Shown here piece after piece: positions 34,576 through 44,472 of a DNA stretch of 64,000 nucleotides (positions are counted from its first letter, which is position 1; each line of letters begins with the position of its first letter). Below the pieces are notes generated by a model. The model searched no databases, was not told where the DNA came from, and saw only the letters and a program-made list of their open reading frames with translations. The DNA lies in contig JBCAZT010000002.1 in NCBI GenBank assembly GCA_038532855.1, positions 1,557-65,556 of the forward strand, in the 5' to 3' direction. Position numbers and translations under genes: made by a program. The DNA comes from Pseudomonadota bacterium (lineage in GTDB: Bacteria > Pseudomonadota > Alphaproteobacteria > Sphingomonadales > Sphingomonadaceae).

Positions 34576-35739
34576 TCAGCTCTTTTTGTCGAACTCTTCC
34601 AATTTCTTCGCAGCCCATTCGCGGCCGCCCATACCGAAGGCAAGAGCGCCTGCGACCGACAGGCCGATAACCAGAGCGCCAAAGCCGATGGTCACGATCT
34701 CTTCACCGATATTCATGTTGTTAAGACCCATGAAGGTGAAGACCAGCATCGCACCATAGTGCACTACGGTTCCAGCCATGCTGTTTTCGTTGCCAGCAGA
34801 AACCAGCTTGCCAAGCAGATTGGCAATCAGGAAGCCGACACCGATGATCACTGCGCCGAATGCGACGTTACCGCCGATAGCGAGGACTTGGTTGAGGATG
34901 TTGGTCACCTCTGGGAAGCCAAGCAGGCGTGTCGCAGCGATTGCGAAGAACAAGATGATGCCAACTTGAACGATGCGGGCGATCACTGCTGATGCGCTGG
35001 TGTTTGCTGGAAGCAGACCCATTGCAGCAATCGGACCATCAACGCCCAGGCCGCCAAGAACTTCGGTCAGCAGACTGACGACAAAGCGGCTGATCATATA
35101 ACCAATGCCAAGCAGGATGCCTGCTGCGATGATGTTCGGAATTGCGCCCATGATCATTTCGAGCATGTTGGTCGCAGGCACTGAGATCGACTGAATATCG
35201 AGCACGCCCAATGCACCGATACCGACCGGAATTGCGATCAAAGCATAGATGATCACGCCCAGTGTTTTGGTGATGGTGTTGTTGCCGGTCACTTCATCAG
35301 CGCCCGCTTTGTTAGCCCAGCGATCAAGATCGAGGGTTTGCATAGCAGTCACTGCGATGTCGCGAACGATCCCTGCGATCATCAAGCCGATGAACATCAA
35401 CAGGCCTGCGCTAAAGAGGCGCGGTACATAAGCCATGATGGTGTTCAAAAGTTCGTTGATTGGCCCAGCAACGCCGCCCAGTTCCAGCACATCAAGAATG
35501 GCGAGAAGGCCGAACAGCCAGACAAGCAGCGAAACGATCTTGCCAAGCGACATGCCGACGCTGGTGCCGCTGCTGGTGTTGCGATCAAGGAATGGAACGC
35601 GGCTGACAAGAGCGGCAAAAGCGCGCTTTGCAATGCCAGCGATGATCCAGGTGACGAGTAAGATGCCAAGCGCAAAGAGCGCTTTCTGACCTAAGGCCAA
35701 AGCCAGGTCGGCATCAAAAGTGTATTGTCCAATTTGCAT
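34576..35739 (-). CDS. polytopic membrane protein with repeated conserved-TM-helix units (mechanosensitive-channel-related?)
   Basis: 387 aa made almost entirely of repeated helix pairs with G/A-rich faces. Resembles TM_helix repeat proteins. Assignment is tentative. Confidence 0.5.
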   Translation of the reverse strand: MQIGQYTFDADLALALGQKALFALGILLVTWIIAGIAKRAFAALVSRVPFLDRNTSSGTSVGMSLGKIVSLLVWLFGLLAILDVLELGGVAGPINELLNTIMAYVPRLFSAGLLMFIGLMIAGIVRDIAVTAMQTLDLDRWANKAGADEVTGNNTITKTLGVIIYALIAIPVGIGALGVLDIQSISVPATNMLEMIMGAIPNIIAAGILLGIGYMISRFVVSLLTEVLGGLGVDGPIAAMGLLPANTSASAVIARIVQVGIILFFAIAATRLLGFPEVTNILNQVLAIGGNVAFGAVIIGVGFLIANLLGKLVSAGNENSMAGTVVHYGAMLVFTFMGLNNMNIGEEIVTIGFGALVIGLSVAGALAFGMGGREWAAKKLEEFDKKS

Positions 35740-36977: not shown

Positions 36978-37931
36978 TTAGAACGGATTGATCTTGGACC
37001 AGCGATAATCGCCAAGGACAAAATCGGTGATGACTTTACCGACTTGTTCCAACACTGCCTCTGATGCGGGATCAAGATTGTCGTGCGTTTCACGCGTTCT
37101 GTAATAGGTGGCAAAGGTGACAGGCGCTCTTGGTGTGTCCCCTTTGGGTGGGGCTTCTGCAAAACCAATGTCGACATAGATGCTGCCTGCGCCCGGAATG
37201 AAGGCGGTGCCCGTTTTGTCACCCCCAATCCAGCCTTCTTCAAGGCCTGCGCGCACACGGTTTTTGCCCGTGTTCGTATCGATCATCCATTGCCTTAACG
37301 TTGCCCGCTGGGCTTCCGGCAGAACATCGCCATAAACCAGTTTCGCCACCGTTCGCGCCATTGCCGTTGGCGTGGTCGTATCGCGCACTTCGGTTATGGG
37401 GACATTGTTGAGTGATGGCTCCAACCGATCAATCCGGCTCACATCATCACCAATAGAACGCCAAAAGCCCGTAAGTGCCGCTGGCCCGCCGAACTCGCGC
37501 AACAGAACATTGGCTGCGGTGTTGTCAGATGTGACCTGCGTTGCCCGCGCCAGATCGAGCATGCTTGCCCCTTCTACGACGCGCTCTTTTGTATAGGGTG
37601 AGAAAAACACCAGTTCATCCTCGCTCCAGCGCACGATGCGGTTGCCATCGATTTCGCCGTTTGCATGGCTGCTCAACACCTTGGCAGCGAGGGACAATTT
37701 GAATGAAGAGCAATGGCCAAAGCGCATTGTCCGGTTAAGCCCGATCGATAGGCCGCTTTGCGGGTCGAACACTTCTGCGCCCAGTGTCCCGCCTGCATTA
37801 GCTTCAATAATCCGCAACCGCGACTGGAGCCTTCCCAAGGGGCTCTGATCAGGCGGGAGGCAACCGGACAGGCCAAGCGCGAAGCCTGATCCAATCGCTG
37901 CGCGGCGTGTGAAATTTGGCGTGCGGGTCAT
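36978..37931 (-). CDS. class A beta-lactamase, Tat/lipoprotein-type leader
   Basis: All four class A signatures are present: S-x-x-K (CSSFK), SDN, E-x-x-LN (RLEPSLN) and KTG (GDKTGT). Leader FTRRAAIGSGFALGLSGC. Confidence 0.85.
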   Translation of the reverse strand: MTRTPNFTRRAAIGSGFALGLSGCLPPDQSPLGRLQSRLRIIEANAGGTLGAEVFDPQSGLSIGLNRTMRFGHCSSFKLSLAAKVLSSHANGEIDGNRIVRWSEDELVFFSPYTKERVVEGASMLDLARATQVTSDNTAANVLLREFGGPAALTGFWRSIGDDVSRIDRLEPSLNNVPITEVRDTTTPTAMARTVAKLVYGDVLPEAQRATLRQWMIDTNTGKNRVRAGLEEGWIGGDKTGTAFIPGAGSIYVDIGFAEAPPKGDTPRAPVTFATYYRTRETHDNLDPASEAVLEQVGKVITDFVLGDYRWSKINPF

Positions 37932-38866
37932 GAAAACTTATCGGCCTTTCTTTTGCCAAAGCGCATGTCCCCTTCGAGCTTGGCCCGCAATTGCGCGTAA
38001 AAGGATTCTAGGAATGCGCGTTCATCGCCAGCGCCCGGGTCCCAACCGATTTTGCGGCAAATTGTTTCATGCACCGCAGATAACGCTTCTGGTTCGGCCT
38101 CGCGAAGCATCCGTTCCAAGGTCTGCAATTCGCGTTCGCCATAGATCGACAATTCTTCATCGCCAAAGTCATAGCGAACACCGGTTACCGCGCTTGTGCC
38201 TTTGGCCGCACCTTGGGTGGAAAGCGTGTCAGCGAGCTTGGTTCGCGGGGCTTCAACCACCCATGTACCAGCAATAACATCGCCGGCTCGCAGGGCATCT
38301 TTGTTGAAGAAGGGAAACAGCAAGAAGATTAAGAACCAAATCGTCGCCGCCCAAATCGCGCCGCCCAAATCCTGTTCAACGGAACTCATGACTGCCAGTG
38401 TCAGCAAAAAAACGAGCGGGTAGAATATCTCGATATCGCGAAGCAGGTTGCGCGCGATCACCGCTTCTGGTGTCAGCCTTGCCCCTCCATGGGCTGCGAC
38501 CCTGATCCCGACAGCGCGCTTGCCCAAGGTGGCACCGCGTGGCCCCAATTCCTGCGCTAAGAAATATCCATACCAAGCGACAAATCCTGAAATAATCGCC
38601 ATGACTGCCAAAAATTCGCGGGCATTGGAGGCCTCTGCATCATCGGCGATAACGCCTGTGTCAAACAGCCCGCCTGCAATCCAGCTAATGATCCAAATGG
38701 CCAAGATAAGCGCCAGCATGAGGATCAAGAAATCTAAGATCAGCGCCCCAGCACGCGACCCGCGCGAGGCGACAACCATCGGCACAGCGATCCCTTCCGG
38801 CGTGATGAGTGTGCGCTCTCTTTTGTTGGCTGGTGTGCCGTTTGCAATCGCAGCGCTCGTGCTCAT
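37928..38866 (-). CDS. RDD family membrane protein
   Basis: 312 aa. RAGALILDFLILMLALI...LGKRAVGIRV is typical of an RDD domain, followed by a soluble C-terminal domain. ATGA overlaps on both sides. Confidence 0.75.
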   Translation of the reverse strand: MSTSAAIANGTPANKRERTLITPEGIAVPMVVASRGSRAGALILDFLILMLALILAIWIISWIAGGLFDTGVIADDAEASNAREFLAVMAIISGFVAWYGYFLAQELGPRGATLGKRAVGIRVAAHGGARLTPEAVIARNLLRDIEIFYPLVFLLTLAVMSSVEQDLGGAIWAATIWFLIFLLFPFFNKDALRAGDVIAGTWVVEAPRTKLADTLSTQGAAKGTSAVTGVRYDFGDEELSIYGERELQTLERMLREAEPEALSAVHETICRKIGWDPGAGDERAFLESFYAQLRAKLEGDMRFGKRKADKFS

Positions 38867-40011
38867 CCGCTCACTCCCACAGGGCGAGGGCGGTAAAGGT
38901 AGAAATAGGCAAGCCAGAAAGCGAGCATCATCCCGCCGATCAAAAAGCGGTTTTGTGCCCCATCAACCAATTGGCGCGGGAACGCCTCGAGCAAAGCGGC
39001 AGCTACCATCATCAGCACAACGCCCACCATCACAACTGCACCGCGACGCCCGGCTTCAGACGCAGCCTGAAGCACACTGCGATCGCCAGGAAATGCCATT
39101 GAACGGCCAATGTGAAGCCCAGCAGCGCCTGATAACAAGATGCCAAACAGCTCAGTCGTCCCATGAACGCTGAGCCATGCGGCAAATTCAACCTCCAGCC
39201 CTTGGCCTGCAAACAGCCACATCATCGCGCCCAACAAAGCGAGATTGTAGATCAACAGCAATAAGGTCGGAATGCCGAATGCAAATCCCAACGCGAAGGC
39301 GAGAATGCAAACGCCTGCATTGTTGCTGAAAAGGCTGGCAGCAAAGACCGATAGCCCCCCTGCATCTTGCTCCACTGCCAGTGTTTCAGCGAGCGCCTCG
39401 CGGCTGGCACCGGGAACACGCGCATCAAGGAAGTTGGAAGGGACAAGGCGGTAATACCATTCCTCATCGCGCACGACGAGCAGCCAGCCAACGAGAGTGC
39501 CTGCCACCATCACAAACAGCGCAATGCACGATTCCAGCCATATGCCGCGCACAGCCCAGCTCCATCCGCCGAAAAAGAATTCTCTAAGCCATCCAAATAA
39601 CCCTTTGCGAGGGCCATAGACCTGAAACCAAGCGCGCTGGACGAGGCTTTCTAGATAGCTGAGTGTTGCAGAATCGAGCGAAGTCTCTCGCGCCACAGAA
39701 AGGCTGGATGCGGCCGTGCGATAGAGTGTGGGTAGAGCGAGCAAATCGTCATCATCTATGCGCCGCAATCCGCCGCGTTCCATGCGCTGGACAATATCTT
39801 CAAGCCTGCGCCAATCGCCCTCGCGTTCAAGCCTGAACCTGTCCGAACGCAAAGCGGCGCTTTCGATATCGGCGGGCGCTGCGATTTCGCTTTTGCCAAA
39901 GAGGCTCGCAAACCGGCCTTTAGACTTTGCGGGCGTCGCAGAATTGGGTTCTTTTTCGGGCAGGGGAGCGCCCGGCACCGCATCAGGGTTTTTGGTCGCA
40001 GGCTCAATCAT
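38863..40011 (-). CDS. SpoIIM-like (DUF95) integral membrane protein
   Basis: 382 aa. N-terminal cytoplasmic helix domain (FRLEREGDWRRLEDIV...LPTLYRTAASSLSVAR) followed by 5-6 TM with HGTTELFGILLSGAAGL. Confidence 0.7.
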   Translation of the reverse strand: MIEPATKNPDAVPGAPLPEKEPNSATPAKSKGRFASLFGKSEIAAPADIESAALRSDRFRLEREGDWRRLEDIVQRMERGGLRRIDDDDLLALPTLYRTAASSLSVARETSLDSATLSYLESLVQRAWFQVYGPRKGLFGWLREFFFGGWSWAVRGIWLESCIALFVMVAGTLVGWLLVVRDEEWYYRLVPSNFLDARVPGASREALAETLAVEQDAGGLSVFAASLFSNNAGVCILAFALGFAFGIPTLLLLIYNLALLGAMMWLFAGQGLEVEFAAWLSVHGTTELFGILLSGAAGLHIGRSMAFPGDRSVLQAASEAGRRGAVVMVGVVLMMVAAALLEAFPRQLVDGAQNRFLIGGMMLAFWLAYFYLYRPRPVGVSG

Positions 40012-41369
40012 CCGATTGCCTCCGAGTTTTTGATTTCAAAATAGCGATCAATCAGCTGATAGCCGATCTGGTTCCATGGCGCCTCAATCACATCGACGCC
40101 CATACGGCGCAGGCGTTGCAGCACGATGGAACGCTGGGTGGCTAGTGTGTCAGCAGTGACGCTGCGCGCCATCGTCGCGATATCGCCGGGTTCTTCTTCG
40201 ATGATCTCTTCAAGCTCGCTGTCTGCGATGGTCACGAACAGAACCAGATGTTTGTCGACCAGCCTGCCAATGCTCTCAATCATCAGTTCAGCGGCTGTGG
40301 GATCAGTGAAATCGGAAAACAGGACAATCAACGATCGCCTCTGAAGTTTGGCTGTAAGAGTGGCAAGAGCGAGAGTGAAATTGGGCTCTGTCGCTTCATA
40401 ATCGAGGCCTGCCGCCGCGCTTTGCAACCGGTGAAACGCGCGCGCATCGCTGACGAAAGGTGTCATAATTTGGGGGCGCTGCGCAAAACCAAACAGCGAT
40501 ACTTTGTCAGAGCTTTTGAGCGCTACAAACGCGCAGGTCAGCGCTGCGGTAACAGCCCGGTCAATGCGCGGCATTCCGTCAGCGGGCTCGCACATGGCTT
40601 GGCCGCAATCGAATGCGAACACGATCTGATTGTTGCGCTCACTTTCATTTTCGCGCGCATAAAGGTGGACATGCCGCGCGCTGGCTTTCCAATCGATCCG
40701 GCGGCGATCCATGCCTGGTTCGTATTCGGTTAGCGATTCAAACTGGGTGCCTTCGCCTCTGATACGCCGCGCAATAAGGCCGGTTTGGGCATCGCGAAGG
40801 AATGTTTGAAGCTCTTTGCTGCGGACCGGCGACAAATCAGGCCATATGCGGATTTCAGTGTCGAGCGTTCTATGGGTCGTGCGAGCGCCAAGCCCCAATG
40901 GCCCGGCCCAACGCAGCCAAGCGCGTGTTACATTGGCAGTGCCGCGCCGTTTCGGTTTTAACTCAACGTTGCCGGTGTGTCCGTTGTCGAATCGGTCCGA
41001 TTGCAAGGCAAATGCGGCTCTGCCTGCCATTCCTAGGCGGGGGTCAAATTCCAAAGCAGCGCGAACAACAGCGCGTGATCCTCTTTTAAAGTGGGCTGTC
41101 ACTGTCACAGGCGTTGATTGGCCCACTTCTGTATCGTTTGGTGCGCCCACATCCCATTGCTCAACAGCGCCCGCCATGGTCGCATCGAGCAAGATCAGCA
41201 CAAACAGGGCAACAGCTGCAATCGGTGCGATCAGCCACAATTGCGGCGCGGTGGCCGCAATAATAACCGCGACAGGTGCAAAGCCTGCAATCACCCATGC
41301 CGAACGCTCTGTCGGGACGACAGGCACGGGGGGCAAATTCGCCAGAAATGCGGGGCGTGACAGCGCCAT
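40008..41369 (-). CDS. DUF58 domain protein (vWA-like, MoxR partner)
   Basis: N-terminal 2 TM. RRIDWKASARHVHLYARENESERNNQIVFAFDCGQAM is the DUF58 signature. Confidence 0.85.
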   Translation of the reverse strand: MALSRPAFLANLPPVPVVPTERSAWVIAGFAPVAVIIAATAPQLWLIAPIAAVALFVLILLDATMAGAVEQWDVGAPNDTEVGQSTPVTVTAHFKRGSRAVVRAALEFDPRLGMAGRAAFALQSDRFDNGHTGNVELKPKRRGTANVTRAWLRWAGPLGLGARTTHRTLDTEIRIWPDLSPVRSKELQTFLRDAQTGLIARRIRGEGTQFESLTEYEPGMDRRRIDWKASARHVHLYARENESERNNQIVFAFDCGQAMCEPADGMPRIDRAVTAALTCAFVALKSSDKVSLFGFAQRPQIMTPFVSDARAFHRLQSAAAGLDYEATEPNFTLALATLTAKLQRRSLIVLFSDFTDPTAAELMIESIGRLVDKHLVLFVTIADSELEEIIEEEPGDIATMARSVTADTLATQRSIVLQRLRRMGVDVIEAPWNQIGYQLIDRYFEIKNSEAIG

Positions 41370-41374
41370 TGGCT

Positions 41375-42337
41375 TTATCGAGGTGCCTCTGTGCTTTCGA
41401 CGAGTTCGGCCACCAAAGCTTCGATATCGCGGCCTTCGATTTCGGCAGCTGGGCTGAGCGTTAGGCGGTGGCGCAGGACGGGCACGGCCAAAGCTTTAAC
41501 ATCATCAGGAATGATATAAGCGCGCCCCTCGAGCGCAGCGCGTGCCCGCGCAGCATTGGCCAAAAGGACAGCAGCGCGCGGGCTGGCGCCCACAGAAAGC
41601 TCAGCATGTTCTCGCGTCGCGCGAACGAGGCGGACGACATATTGCGTGATCTCTTCAGCCACTGTCACGTGATCAAGCGCGCCGCTGGCAGCGACCAATT
41701 TTGCGGCATCTGCGACCGCTGTAACTCCCAAATCCGCTGGCCGCTGGGGCCCTTGCCGCGATCCAAAGCTGGTGACAATGCGCACTTCTTCCGCTTCGTC
41801 AGGGTAGGGAACAAGCAGTTTAAACAGGAACCGGTCCAGTTGCGCTTCAGGAAGCGGGTAGACACCTTGGTTCTCGATGGGGTTCTGGGTTGCCACCACC
41901 ATAAACCTCTCAGGCAATTGGTGGGTTTCGCCATCCAAGGTGACGCGGCGTTCCTGCATTGCCTCTAGCAAAGCAGCCTGCGTTTTGGGCGGGGTGCGGT
42001 TGATTTCATCTGCCAAAAGCAATTCGCAAAATATGGGCCCGCGCGTCAGCGTGAATTGGCTGGTCTGAAAGTTGAACAAATTCGATCCCAGAATATCTCC
42101 GGGCAGCAGATCAGGCGTGAATTGGATGCGTCCGAAATCGAGGCCAAGCGCGGTTGAAAACGCATTGGCGAGAAACGTCTTGGCAGTTCCCGGAGGGCCT
42201 TCCAAAAGCACGTGTCCTTCGCTGACCATAGCGACGAGCAATTGATCGATAATCTCTTCCTGCCCGACAATCGCCTTTGCGACTTCGGCGCGGATGCTGT
42301 CCGCTAGCGCGCGTAGATCTTCTAGGCTCATACTCAT
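41375..42337 (-). CDS. MoxR-family AAA+ ATPase
   Basis: 320 aa. Walker [11 protein letters not shown], Walker [28 protein letters not shown]. Confidence 0.95.
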
Positions 42338-43653
42338 GTCGCAGGTTTCCCCTTATTGCTCTTTGTATCTTCAATTGTTGTGACCAAATCGGTCAATGAT
42401 TTCGCCGCGCGCACAATGTCGCCAGCGCTCGTTGCGCTGCGCAGTTTGGCGGCGCGGTGGGTAAACGGTTCTTCTTGCGGGAAGCGTGATTGCATGGCTG
42501 CATCAATCGCTTCGGGGTCAGGTTTTTGAAGGCCCATGGCTTTCGCAACGCGGTTGGCAGACAAGTTCGCGTAAGGTTCAGCCAAAAGACGCAAACGGCC
42601 CGCTCGAACGATCAGCCCTGCGCCATTGCCAACAAGACGTTTCTTCCCAAACGCAATGTCAGGCCCGCTGGCAGCAGCAGGTCCAAAGCGGAGGAATGCG
42701 CGCCATCCGACAATGAACATCGCAAGGATCAGGCACAACGTGGCGGCCAAGAATGGAGGCCGGAATGCTAACGTTAGAAGATTGGTGGTCCCGCCGAAAC
42801 CGTTCAGCGTCAGATCAAATGTGATGTTTGTATCCGGCCCATATCCCGCTTCTTGAACCAGCGCGAGCGCGGCAGCCGCCCGCGTTTCATCTGCCAGCCC
42901 GTAATTGTTCATCAAATCGGGTTCGACTACAAAAATGGTCCATTGGGCATCGTTGTAATAATCGCTGTCTTCTTCACCCAGCACATTCATGGCGAGAACA
43001 TGACCCGCCGCATCGGTCACAAGCGGCTCAAACGTGTCACCGGTTTCGGCATAAGCGATAGTGCGTGTGGGAAGCTCGCCTGATAGACCAAAGCCGTCCC
43101 AGCCGGGTTCTTCATCTTCTTCAAGCTGCTCAATCTTGTGCTCAAAAGAGAAGGGGTTGGGGAGGTCTCTGCTCCAGTCCACCGGGAATCCATCGCCCAA
43201 TTGCACCCAGCCGCGCTTGAATTCCTCTGCCACTTCGTCAGGCAAGTTGCGCGGGGGCAGCCGTGCAAACCACTTTGGCAATATCACGAGTGTAGGACCA
43301 GTGTATTCGCGGTCCCACAATATGTCCGCAATATCATCAGGATCCATGTAGCTGGGCGGCGTGAGGATCAGAAGGTCGTTGGTCTCAAGACCGCTCGGGG
43401 AGCGGGATGTGGTGACATCGTACCCTTCATTTTCGAGCAGACGGACCAGGCCCGCGTAACCGTTCAACCCAGTTGAAGCTGCATGGGCTGCGCCATTGTT
43501 GTCACGGCTTCCATCGTCTCCGCCTGACAGAAAGTACAAAAGCGCAAAGAAGGCAGCAAAGCCAACGAGCAATACGAACAAAAGAGTGGCTTTGCCAAAA
43601 GGCGATCCCCCTCGGCCTGATTGCGCAGTGGTGAGGGCATCAGTTTCGCTCAT
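42334..43653 (-). CDS. DUF4350-like membrane-anchored protein
   Basis: N-terminal TM, then [19 protein letters not shown]...NDLLILTPP, typical of DUF4350. A second TM lies near residue 300. Confidence 0.65.
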
Positions 43654-44405
43654 ACGGCACCTCTTTGGATCAGGCGTCCCTCAATTTTGGCGAGCGCAAA
43701 TTCGGCATAGGCCGCGCGCGCGGTCTCCCAATCAGATCGGTCGAGAGATCGCAGGGCGAAAAGGCTTCGCTCAACCCGTTCTGCAATGGTGCCAAAGGCT
43801 TTGCGTGCGGCATCGGGAAGCGATTTTAGCGCGGCCAACTCGCGCGCAGTGCTTGATGGTTCCACCCAGTCTGGCCTCGCCCTCGCGATCTGCCCAACGC
43901 TGCGTTTAAGCAGTAGATGGGTTGCTTCATCAAATTTGCCTTCGGCTGCCAGCCGGTCTGCATCTTCCAAAAGGGCAAGGCTTTCCTGCCTATCAGGCTG
44001 CCATTGGGGGATATCTTCTTCCTCACCCTTGGCGTTCTTGCCCGGCGCCAAAGGCCCATACATGCGCACGATCAAATACAGGATGAAGGCGATCAGCAGT
44101 GCGAGCAAAACCCATTGAAGAAACCACCAGGAATTGGCGAGTGCCGTTCCAATCGGCGCGAACAAATCGCCCAGCCAATCAAAAACGCTTTCGAGCCAGC
44201 GTTCAAAAGCAGACGGTTCGCGAGGGGGAATGGGCGGAATTTCAATTGGTTCAAATTGAATATCACCATCATTGCGCAACCCATCCCAGCTTTCCTCCAG
44301 TGTTTCAGAAGGGATAGGCTGAGCGGATTGAGCCGCATCTTGGTTGTCTTCAAAAGTCGGTTGTACCGCGAAAGTCATTCGAGTTGCTTCGTGGCACGGC
44401 AACAC
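43650..44405 (-). CDS. DUF4129-like membrane protein
   Basis: Acidic N-terminus, one TM (WWFLQWVLLALLIAFILYLIV). The C-terminal helical domain with STARELAALKSLPDAARKAF...ERSLFA...DWETARAAY resembles DUF4129. Confidence 0.6.
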   Translation of the reverse strand: MLPCHEATRMTFAVQPTFEDNQDAAQSAQPIPSETLEESWDGLRNDGDIQFEPIEIPPIPPREPSAFERWLESVFDWLGDLFAPIGTALANSWWFLQWVLLALLIAFILYLIVRMYGPLAPGKNAKGEEEDIPQWQPDRQESLALLEDADRLAAEGKFDEATHLLLKRSVGQIARARPDWVEPSSTARELAALKSLPDAARKAFGTIAERVERSLFALRSLDRSDWETARAAYAEFALAKIEGRLIQRGAV

Positions 44406-44472
44406 GGCATGCGCAACAGGTTAGGTTTGCGAATAGTATGGAATTGTTCACCTTTATTGCAGGCGCTAAGCA

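Follow-up and report, generated by a model that had tools for sequence, protein, structure and literature searches.

What is the work of an operon in which five membrane proteins are encoded together with a single MoxR-family AAA+ ATPase? This question is raised by six genes (numbered 1 to 6: DUF4129, DUF4350, MoxR, DUF58, SpoIIM-like, and RDD) on the minus strand of the DNA analyzed here, a stretch of 64,000 nucleotides (nt) from a bacterium of the Sphingomonadaceae (assembly GCA_038532855.1, contig JBCAZT010000002.1, positions 1,557 to 65,556), referred to below as the window. The locus is one ordinary member of a widespread, functionally uncharacterized MoxR-vWA variant, and its only special twist is a coupled beta-lactamase gene (gene 7). 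The reading that we prefer, with a probability of roughly 0.4, is that the unit would be a self-contained inner-membrane AAA+ machine, in which the MoxR/DUF58 pair remodels a co-encoded SpoIIM-like/RDD/DUF4350 complex that acts on the envelope.

Few prokaryotic AAA+ systems are as widespread as MoxR-vWA pairs, but clients are known in only a handful of cases. The present variant is unusual in that the genes of its likely clients lie in its own operon, and it can therefore be tested directly. An answer would assign functions to five DUF-type families at once (DUF4129, DUF4350, DUF58, DUF8413/SpoIIM-like, and RDD) and could explain the role of SpoIIM homologues in non-sporulating bacteria. The family is also large, with 1806 representative clusters at E ≤0.001 among 1.84 billion representatives for the profile of the DUF4350 component alone. 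It holds a core syntenic chromosomal position in Sphingomonadales and, by annotation, is present in pathogenic mycobacteria as well.

Coupled genes and their products

The open reading frame (ORF) coordinates agree with the six-gene minus-strand block at 37928 to 44405 that the initial annotation had outlined. The five junctions, read directly from the sequence, are in order ATGA, ATGA, a gap, ATGA, and ATGA, again as first described; the gap places the start of the DUF58 gene 5 nt after the MoxR stop codon. What had been missed is a further ATGA, which joins the gene of a class A beta-lactamase to the RDD gene. The six genes therefore stand, but the coupled unit in this genome comprises seven, because gene 7 overlaps its neighbor in the same manner.

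Is the coupling peculiar to this genome? Across 81 alphaproteobacterial loci, with denominators that differ by junction, an NTGA overlap is possible between genes 1 and 2 (A and B) in 68/68 cases, between B and MoxR in 51/72, between DUF58 and SpoIIM in 74/81, and between SpoIIM and RDD in 71/80. The MoxR/DUF58 junction overlaps in 20 of 73 loci and has a gap of ≤20 nt in 49 of the 73. The coupled arrangement exceeds chance by far. At the head of the unit, the longest ORF of gene 1 begins with GTG 44405 and an alternative ATG lies at 44378. The 241-amino-acid (aa) call for its equivalent in a close relative (locus L001, 81% identical) matches ATG 44378, which is probably the true start; no clear Shine-Dalgarno sequence precedes either candidate. 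The gene pheA lies upstream on the same strand, and GC content is even throughout the region. Scans for consensus promoters and terminators inside the unit and upstream of it gave nothing above chance, and Rfam found no element anywhere in the window, so a regulatory RNA or a consensus promoter or terminator in or upstream of the operon was rejected.

Gene 3 encodes a soluble MoxR AAA+ ATPase (Pfam AAA_3, 207.6 bits; AAA_lid_2, 81.8 bits) with Walker A, Walker B, sensor 1, Arg finger, and sensor 2 intact. GPPGTAKT(47), TQNP(150), LDRF(167), and GASPR(250) were located by regular expression, and the translation shows Walker B as LLADEINR. PDB entry 2r44, a C. hutchinsonii protein bearing the title "Uncharacterized protein," is matched at E 6e-71. 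Hydropathy analysis finds no transmembrane segment in MoxR and at least one in each of the five other products, in line with the initial count of five membrane proteins among six.

The DUF58 gene adjoins the MoxR gene in all loci examined. Its product here is a long DUF58 protein of 453 aa (DUF58, 87.5 bits; VWA_2, a weak 28.1 bits), composed of an N-terminal transmembrane hairpin (residues 23 to 61), a middle region, and a vWA-like domain, and it carries the PF01882 signature RGxGxEF...IDWKxSAR, which is kept across classes. The canonical MIDAS (metal ion-dependent adhesion site) motif, DxSxS, is not found; the position reads D254-C-G256-Q-A-M259. This D-x-G-x-x-M pattern is conserved in Alphaproteobacteria, Gammaproteobacteria, and Bacteroidota (10 sequences from three classes or phyla, with D and M invariant, G nearly so, and no Ser pair), and since it replaces DxSxS, canonical metal-mediated ligand binding by DUF58 is unlikely. 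Profile searches against PDB sequences gave no meaningful solved relative for DUF58, nor anything meaningful for SpoIIM.

The other domain assignments of the initial annotation hold by Pfam as well, that of gene 1 by way of its positional equivalents. The gene 1 protein itself scores 23.2 bits against DUF4129, under the cut-off of 24.8. Among proteins in the same position elsewhere, those of Solitalea (30.5 bits) and of a "Deltaproteobacteria" metagenome-assembled genome (MAG) (29.4 bits) exceed the cut-off at their C-termini and others reach 20.3, 18.8, and 16.9 bits; the assignment is accepted on the strength of the matches above the cut-off. Gene 1 encodes a small bitopic protein with one transmembrane segment (residues 95 to 113 by hydropathy) and an acidic N-terminal tail (4 K/R versus 17 D/E). 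Charge bias predicts a cytoplasmic DUF4129 domain at the C-terminus and a periplasmic tail.

The gene 2 protein matches DUF4350 at 41.7 bits (cut-off, 30.4) and has two transmembrane segments by hydropathy, an N-terminal anchor and residues 301 to 319. Between them lies an alpha/beta domain (about residues 60 to 280) of the GldG/GIFT, class I glutamine-amidotransferase-like type, which is acidic (14 K/R versus 46 D/E), and a helical domain follows at about residues 344 to 433. The same charge bias predicts that the GldG-like domain is periplasmic and the helical domain cytoplasmic. The AlphaFold2 model (predicted local distance difference test [pLDDT] score, 72.9) has a confident alpha/beta domain, then the transmembrane helix and the helical domain. 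Foldseek returned weak matches only (PabA, GH42, and the N-terminal domain of IFT52; best E, 5.6e-3), and these amidotransferase-like and GIFT matches agree with the likeness of DUF4350 to GldG that Makarova et al. obtained by HHpred in 2015 (PMC5898192). In profile searches, the best-kept part of distant DUF4350 members is the transmembrane helix together with the cytoplasmic C-terminal half. Homology between that C-terminal domain and DUF4129 was rejected (hhalign probability, 0.3).

Genes 5 and 6 encode the polytopic members. The SpoIIM-like protein (PF01944, 108.1 bits) has at least four transmembrane segments by hydropathy and an N-terminal helical domain, predicted to be cytoplasmic by the positive-inside rule, that corresponds to Pfam DUF8413 (PF28475) in relatives, where it also accompanies PF01944. 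An alignment of 54 sequences from three classes or phyla shows invariant positions in the membrane domain that include N231, N256, H283, E287, and E342. The structure model is confident (pLDDT, 84.2; predicted template modeling score, 0.74), and a comparison with PDB folds gave no match (best E, 0.25; template modeling score, <0.2). The RDD protein (PF06271, 54.8 bits) has four predicted transmembrane segments and, at its C-terminus, about 110 aa more that form a domain placed by charge bias in the cytoplasm; such a C-terminal soluble domain occurs in all RDD members of this system. The family residues R/D/D are kept, and when 12 sequences are aligned across phyla, the R...D and RxGD columns are invariant.

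The invariant His/Glu/Glu/Asn/Asn cluster lies in transmembrane helices of a fold with no solved relative. Could it be the active site of an enzyme? The unit might then be a membrane-proximal quality-control or degradation system, with the SpoIIM-like protein (H283, E287, and E342) as an intramembrane hydrolase that replaces the transglutaminase-like peptidase in the operon with MoxR and vWA genes that Zhang and Aravind put forward in 2012 (PMC3495828), and MoxR, DUF58, and DUF4129 are indeed common to that TgpA/YebA-type system. However, Pfam and NCBIfam detect no peptidase family in any protein, and they lack known protease motifs, HExxH-type ones included. Moreover, SpoIIM of Bacillus subtilis is known as a scaffold rather than an enzyme (PMC5898192), and binding of an ion or ligand would account for the polar cluster just as well. 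We consider this explanation quite unlikely.

Conservation, rearrangement, and gene fusion

How far does the gene set extend beyond close relatives? When one genome per species was scanned with the SpoIIM alignment, 470 of the first 600 pattern matches were confirmed, and the best 80 loci returned are all alphaproteobacterial, from Erythrobacteraceae, Novosphingobium, and Hyphomonadaceae; ORFs in these loci were annotated by iterative profile searches that started from the proteins of the window. The order DUF4129-DUF4350-MoxR-DUF58-SpoIIM-RDD is kept in every alphaproteobacterial locus with enough flanking sequence (about 70). The DUF4350 protein is 81 to 84% identical to those of related MAGs and of Erythrobacter sp. 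YT30, where the content (seven genes), order, and flanks of the unit are all the same. Within Sphingomonadales, pheA is immediately upstream in 51/51 loci with a detected pheA homologue and ppx-rlmE-cytc-pheA forms a stable upstream synteny, which argues for a stable, vertically inherited part of the chromosome rather than an island. Two loci carry labels from distant phyla: an Erythrobacter-like locus in the MAG "Synechococcus sp. UW140" (74% identity) and a Hyphomonas-like one in "Acidobacteria bacterium Ga0077551" (45% identity), both probably on mis-binned contigs.

A tblastn search with the SpoIIM-like protein against plasmids and chromids added Rhizobium (53 records), Paracoccus, Catenovulum, and Bernardetia; the same search with the DUF4350 protein against plasmids gave no match, and MoxR matches on actinobacterial plasmids belong to other MoxR systems. 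The module is thus co-conserved in other Alphaproteobacteria, in Gammaproteobacteria, and in Bacteroidota, and its linkage survives at least three different rearrangements (Table 1), so co-conservation is not confined to close relatives. In the Rhizobium and Paracoccus replicons, the gene of a DUF805 membrane protein lies directly upstream of the module (L003, 3248 to 3694; L002, 3365 to 3805); none is found upstream in the window or in Hyphomonas atlantica (L080).

The modules of Bacteroidota and Gammaproteobacteria contain an extra polytopic membrane protein, here called X, with the precomputed label Pfam DUF7847/UPF0259, which the window's alphaproteobacterial version lacks. The N-terminal ~245 residues of the long A proteins from the gamma and delta lineages are homologous to the free-standing X of contig L093 (BLAST E, 1e-36 to 1e-50), indicating that X and the DUF4129 protein are fused in these lineages. 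In Bernardetia and contig L091, the SpoIIM protein has an extra C-terminal membrane domain with weak similarity to X (E of ~0.005). Such gene fusions, a classical kind of evidence, point to physical association of the module proteins.

The initial annotation had mentioned a similar gene order in actinobacteria, and published annotation of Mycobacterium bears out such a counterpart. Consecutive genes of M. chelonae, BB28_RS01875-01900, are annotated as SpoIIM, DUF58, MoxR, and DUF4350 together with an RDD gene and are equated with the Rv3689-Rv3695 block, where SpoIIM corresponds to Rv3694c, DUF58 to Rv3693, MoxR to Rv3692, DUF4350 to Rv3691, and RDD to Rv3695 (PMC8191103). By this annotation, the module is linked in Mycobacterium too.

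The rearrangements also raise the possibility of two independent modules that merely lie together, an RDD-SpoIIM pair and a DUF4129-DUF4350-MoxR-DUF58 unit. The pair occurs alone in Bernardetia and Kapaibacterium; it follows the ATPase half in Alphaproteobacteria and precedes that half in Gammaproteobacteria and Bacteroidota, and the Bacteroidota arrangement is divergent. The M. tuberculosis gene names (Rv3694c versus Rv3693 and Rv3695) likewise imply different strands. Yet the linkage persists through the rearrangements across phyla, the boundary between the halves (DUF58/SpoIIM) is itself NTGA-coupled in most alphaproteobacterial loci, and in both Gammaproteobacteria and Bacteroidota, the SpoIIM gene overlaps the adjoining ATPase-half gene or lies directly against it. 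Fusions, moreover, bridge the halves (SpoIIM-X and X-DUF4129). Two unrelated modules are therefore very unlikely in our judgment.

Table 1. Coordinates of the seven-gene unit in the window and arrangement of the module in other lineages
Feature	Position	Strand	Basis, gene order, or remark
Gene 1 (A, DUF4129)	43650..44405	-	ORF call; likely start ATG 44378
Gene 2 (B, DUF4350)	42334..43653	-	Pfam
Gene 3 (MoxR AAA+ ATPase)	41375..42337	-	Pfam, PDB match, motifs
Gene 4 (long DUF58)	40008..41369	-	Pfam
Gene 5 (SpoIIM-like)	38863..40011	-	Pfam
Gene 6 (RDD family)	37928..38866	-	Pfam
Gene 7 (class A beta-lactamase, passenger)	36978..37931	-	NCBIfam bla_class_A
Intergenic, pheA to gene 1	44406..44472	-	67 nt; own promoter, or read-through from pheA
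Rhizobium, Paracoccus (alpha) replicons			DUF805-A-B-MoxR-DUF58-SpoIIM-RDD
Catenovulum, Pseudoalteromonas (gamma)			RDD-SpoIIM-A-DUF4350-MoxR-DUF58
Contig L093 (2.75 Mb)			RDD-SpoIIM-X-DUF4129-DUF4350-MoxR-DUF58; 4-nt overlaps throughout
Solitalea, Dysgonomonas, Saprospiraceae MAG, contig L091 (Bacteroidota query)			SpoIIM-X-DUF4129-DUF4350-MoxR-DUF58; adjoining RDD divergent; RDD not seen in Saprospiraceae locus
"Deltaproteobacteria" MAG			RDD-SpoIIM-DUF4129, then contig end
Bernardetia, Kapaibacterium contig			RDD/SpoIIM pair only
X or X-containing proteins	L088 8950-9834; L089 8962-9795; L093 9963-10721; L006 8941-10398; L004 8941-10488		

The history of gene 7 differs from that of the six genes before it. 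Its product passes the NCBIfam bla_class_A cut-off (216.3 versus 200 bits), and the motifs SSFK, SDN, RLEPSLN (E166, omega loop), and KTG in the translation indicate an intact class A beta-lactamase; the N-terminus has a Tat-like twin-arginine (RR) motif and the lipobox LSGC. A beta-lactamase gene lies 3' of RDD in 32 loci, all from Erythrobacteraceae, with a 4-nt overlap in 23 and an intergenic gap in 9 (~400 to 800 nt where measurable). None is found beside the module in the loci examined from Novosphingobium, Hyphomonadaceae, Rhizobium, Paracoccus, Gammaproteobacteria, or Bacteroidota. Since it is confined to part of the Erythrobacteraceae, gene 7 was rejected as an integral member and is best seen as a recent, lineage-specific passenger.

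The module might nevertheless serve the adjacent beta-lactamase or peptidoglycan metabolism, for example, as an export or maturation chaperone for a Tat-dependent beta-lactamase lipoprotein, comparable to MoxR1-RipA of M. tuberculosis. The ATGA coupling, here and in the 23 related loci, would suit this idea, as would the recruitment of peptidoglycan hydrolases by SpoIIM in B. subtilis (PMC5898192) and a MoxR1-RipA-Tat report that is cited in the reference list of PMC11834572. But the gene is missing beside the module in the other lineages and separated from it in 9/32 Erythrobacteraceae loci, which marks the association as recent and local, and a role of this kind is extremely improbable. Further downstream, just past an isoaspartyl peptidase gene, the window encodes a 387-aa polytopic membrane protein of unidentified family (34576 to 35739, minus strand), a homologue of which lies near the module in 13 related loci.

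A candidate remodeling mechanism

RavA-ViaA, NorQ-NorD, CbbQ-CbbO, and the Mg-chelatase pair BchI-BchD are established MoxR-vWA pairs. By analogy, a MoxR hexamer could be held at the membrane by DUF58, which would present the cytoplasmic domains of the partner proteins to the ATPase. ATP hydrolysis would then assemble, activate, or reset the SpoIIM-like/RDD/DUF4350 membrane complex, so that the end function would not be carried out by MoxR itself. Topology appears compatible: by the positive-inside rule, the large soluble domains of the four membrane proteins outside the ATPase pair are predicted to be mostly cytoplasmic; the periplasm would be faced by two parts only, the acidic tail of gene 1 and the GldG-like domain of DUF4350. 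DUF4129 may be a docking module, a role that fits its occurrence beside MoxR-DUF58 in otherwise different systems (Thermomicrobium and TgpA-like; PMC3495828).

The working part of such a machine may be the polytopic SpoIIM-like/RDD pair, in which the intramembrane polar residues (N, N, H, E, and E together with R, D, and D) form a candidate binding or catalytic site for a small envelope-related molecule or an ion, and the periplasmic GldG-like domain may be a second working part. Most likely, such a machine would serve the envelope or membrane homeostasis in a housekeeping role rather than defense or mobility. A defense system was rejected: PADLOC gave only weak generic AAA matches for MoxR (best E, 3.6e-6) and no match for the remaining six products, and the locus shows synteny and vertical inheritance. 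We put forward as a tentative and rather doubtful extension that MoxR/DUF58 gates or powers an intramembrane enzyme or transporter made of the SpoIIM-like and RDD proteins with the GldG-like domain, and that the module represents an unrecognized class of envelope machine, found from Proteobacteria and Bacteroidota to mycobacteria (Rv3689-Rv3695), with its own specific envelope substrate.

Might the complex instead be driven by MoxR as a motor and itself serve transport or secretion, with the GldG-like domain handling a polymer or protein that crosses the inner membrane through SpoIIM-like, RDD, or X? Invariant polar residues occur in several of its polytopic membrane proteins, and an RDD protein of Halobacillus is reportedly a cation/proton antiporter. 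The HHpred likeness of DUF4350 to GldG and the weak Foldseek matches that agree with it also suit this idea, which extends the secretion or remodeling role that Makarova et al. predicted for the archaeal DUF4350-MoxR-vWA neighborhood (PMC5898192). However, MoxR-family ATPases are known as remodeling chaperones and not as translocation motors, no conserved cargo, outer-membrane component, or secreted protein lies near the module in any lineage examined, and the loci examined lack the S-layer and Ig-like proteins that accompany the archaeal system. Transport by the complex itself is therefore unlikely.

Several points weigh against a remodeling machine as well. We infer every mechanistic step beyond domain content, topology, linkage, and fusions, and the label "chaperone/insertion machine" in the initial annotation is an extrapolation from the MoxR family. 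Charge bias alone leaves it ambiguous whether the vWA-like domain of DUF58 is in the cytoplasm or the periplasm. The RDD-SpoIIM pair may work without the ATPase, since in Bernardetia and Kapaibacterium it is found without a nearby MoxR half. The sequence identities do not single out a dedicated MoxR lineage: MoxR identities across classes within the system (41 to 48%) are no higher than those to a co-resident Bat-type MoxR (43 to 46%), which does not refute such a lineage. Finally, the M. chelonae block BB28_RS01830-01900, which includes the module, glpF, and glpK, shows a log2 fold change of -6 to -9 in a double lysogen (PMC8191103, Table 4). We suspect a genomic deletion rather than regulation, and if the block is deleted, the module is dispensable in culture.

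Comparison with known systems

Has the system been described before? Full-text literature searches returned no study that assigns a function to this gene combination, in agreement with the initial annotation. The reading given there holds in essence, but the neighborhood is not wholly undescribed: Makarova et al. had noted parts of it in 2015 (PMC5898192). Their archaeal arCOG01314 system has in common with the module a COG0714 ATPase, a vWA gene, and a DUF4350 protein whose GldG-like domain is extracytoplasmic and whose transmembrane segment is C-terminal, and they noted bacterial SpoIIM homologues beside vWA and COG0714 genes. The archaeal system differs in having membrane proteins predicted to be of S-layer and Ig-like types (arCOG02884 and others), none of which is encoded by the window unit or by any bacterial locus examined, whereas RDD and DUF4129 are not described there.

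The MoxR-vWA(DUF58)-YebA/TgpA operon (Zhang and Aravind 2012; PMC3495828) shares MoxR, DUF58, and, if gene 1 is assigned as above, a membrane protein that ends in a cytoplasmic DUF4129 domain, and it also has a periplasmic domain between transmembrane segments. In the present system, by contrast, the periplasmic domain is GldG-like (DUF4350) and belongs to a separate polypeptide, and SpoIIM-like and RDD are additional. The TgpA/YebA transglutaminase system was rejected as an identity, because no product has a transglutaminase-core or DUF3488 Pfam match. A compact MoxR-DUF58-DUF4129 unit (DUF4129 protein, 469 aa) on the Thermomicrobium roseum megaplasmid (L095, 6953 to 10591) has no annotated transglutaminase domain.

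With SpoIIM of B. subtilis, a member of the SpoIID-SpoIIM-SpoIIP engulfment machine, gene 5 shares the membrane domain of Pfam family PF01944. Unlike that protein, it has an N-terminal DUF8413 domain, is operonic with MoxR, and belongs to an Erythrobacter-like host from a non-sporulating alphaproteobacterial lineage; neither spoIID nor spoIIP is found in the locus, within the 64-kb window. The SpoIIM-MoxR context has been described for non-sporulators (PMC5898192).

The Bat operon, with its stress- and envelope-related phenotypes (PMC11834572), is a further candidate. Bat/MRP-type operons (Riemerella anatipestifer, Francisella tularensis, and Bacteroides fragilis) resemble the unit in an MRP-like MoxR gene directly followed by DUF58 and in membrane association. 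Their DUF58 proteins, however, have ~290 to 314 aa versus the long 453-aa form with a transmembrane hairpin, and the partners here (DUF4129, DUF4350, SpoIIM-like, and RDD) are unlike those of the Bat operon. A Bat identity was rejected by Pfam: no TPR protein and no BatA/BatB-type or second vWA protein is found among the seven products, and the initial statement that the unit is not a BatA-E arrangement, with no TPR or secreted vWA domain, is upheld. In addition, a Pseudoalteromonas contig (L006, 1 to 1332, minus strand) encodes a Bat-type MoxR and short DUF58 pair ~6 kb from the module, and this side-by-side occurrence indicates that the two systems are distinct.

The proposed remodeling mechanism is modeled on RavA-ViaA, NorQ-NorD, and CbbQ-CbbO, which likewise combine a MoxR-family ATPase with a vWA partner. 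An identification of gene 3 as RavA was rejected (27 bits versus the NCBIfam cut-off of 681). These pairs belong to other MoxR subfamilies, have a canonical MIDAS, and act on soluble or respiratory-complex clients, whereas the present system has D-x-G-x-x-M in place of the MIDAS and candidate membrane clients encoded in its own operon.

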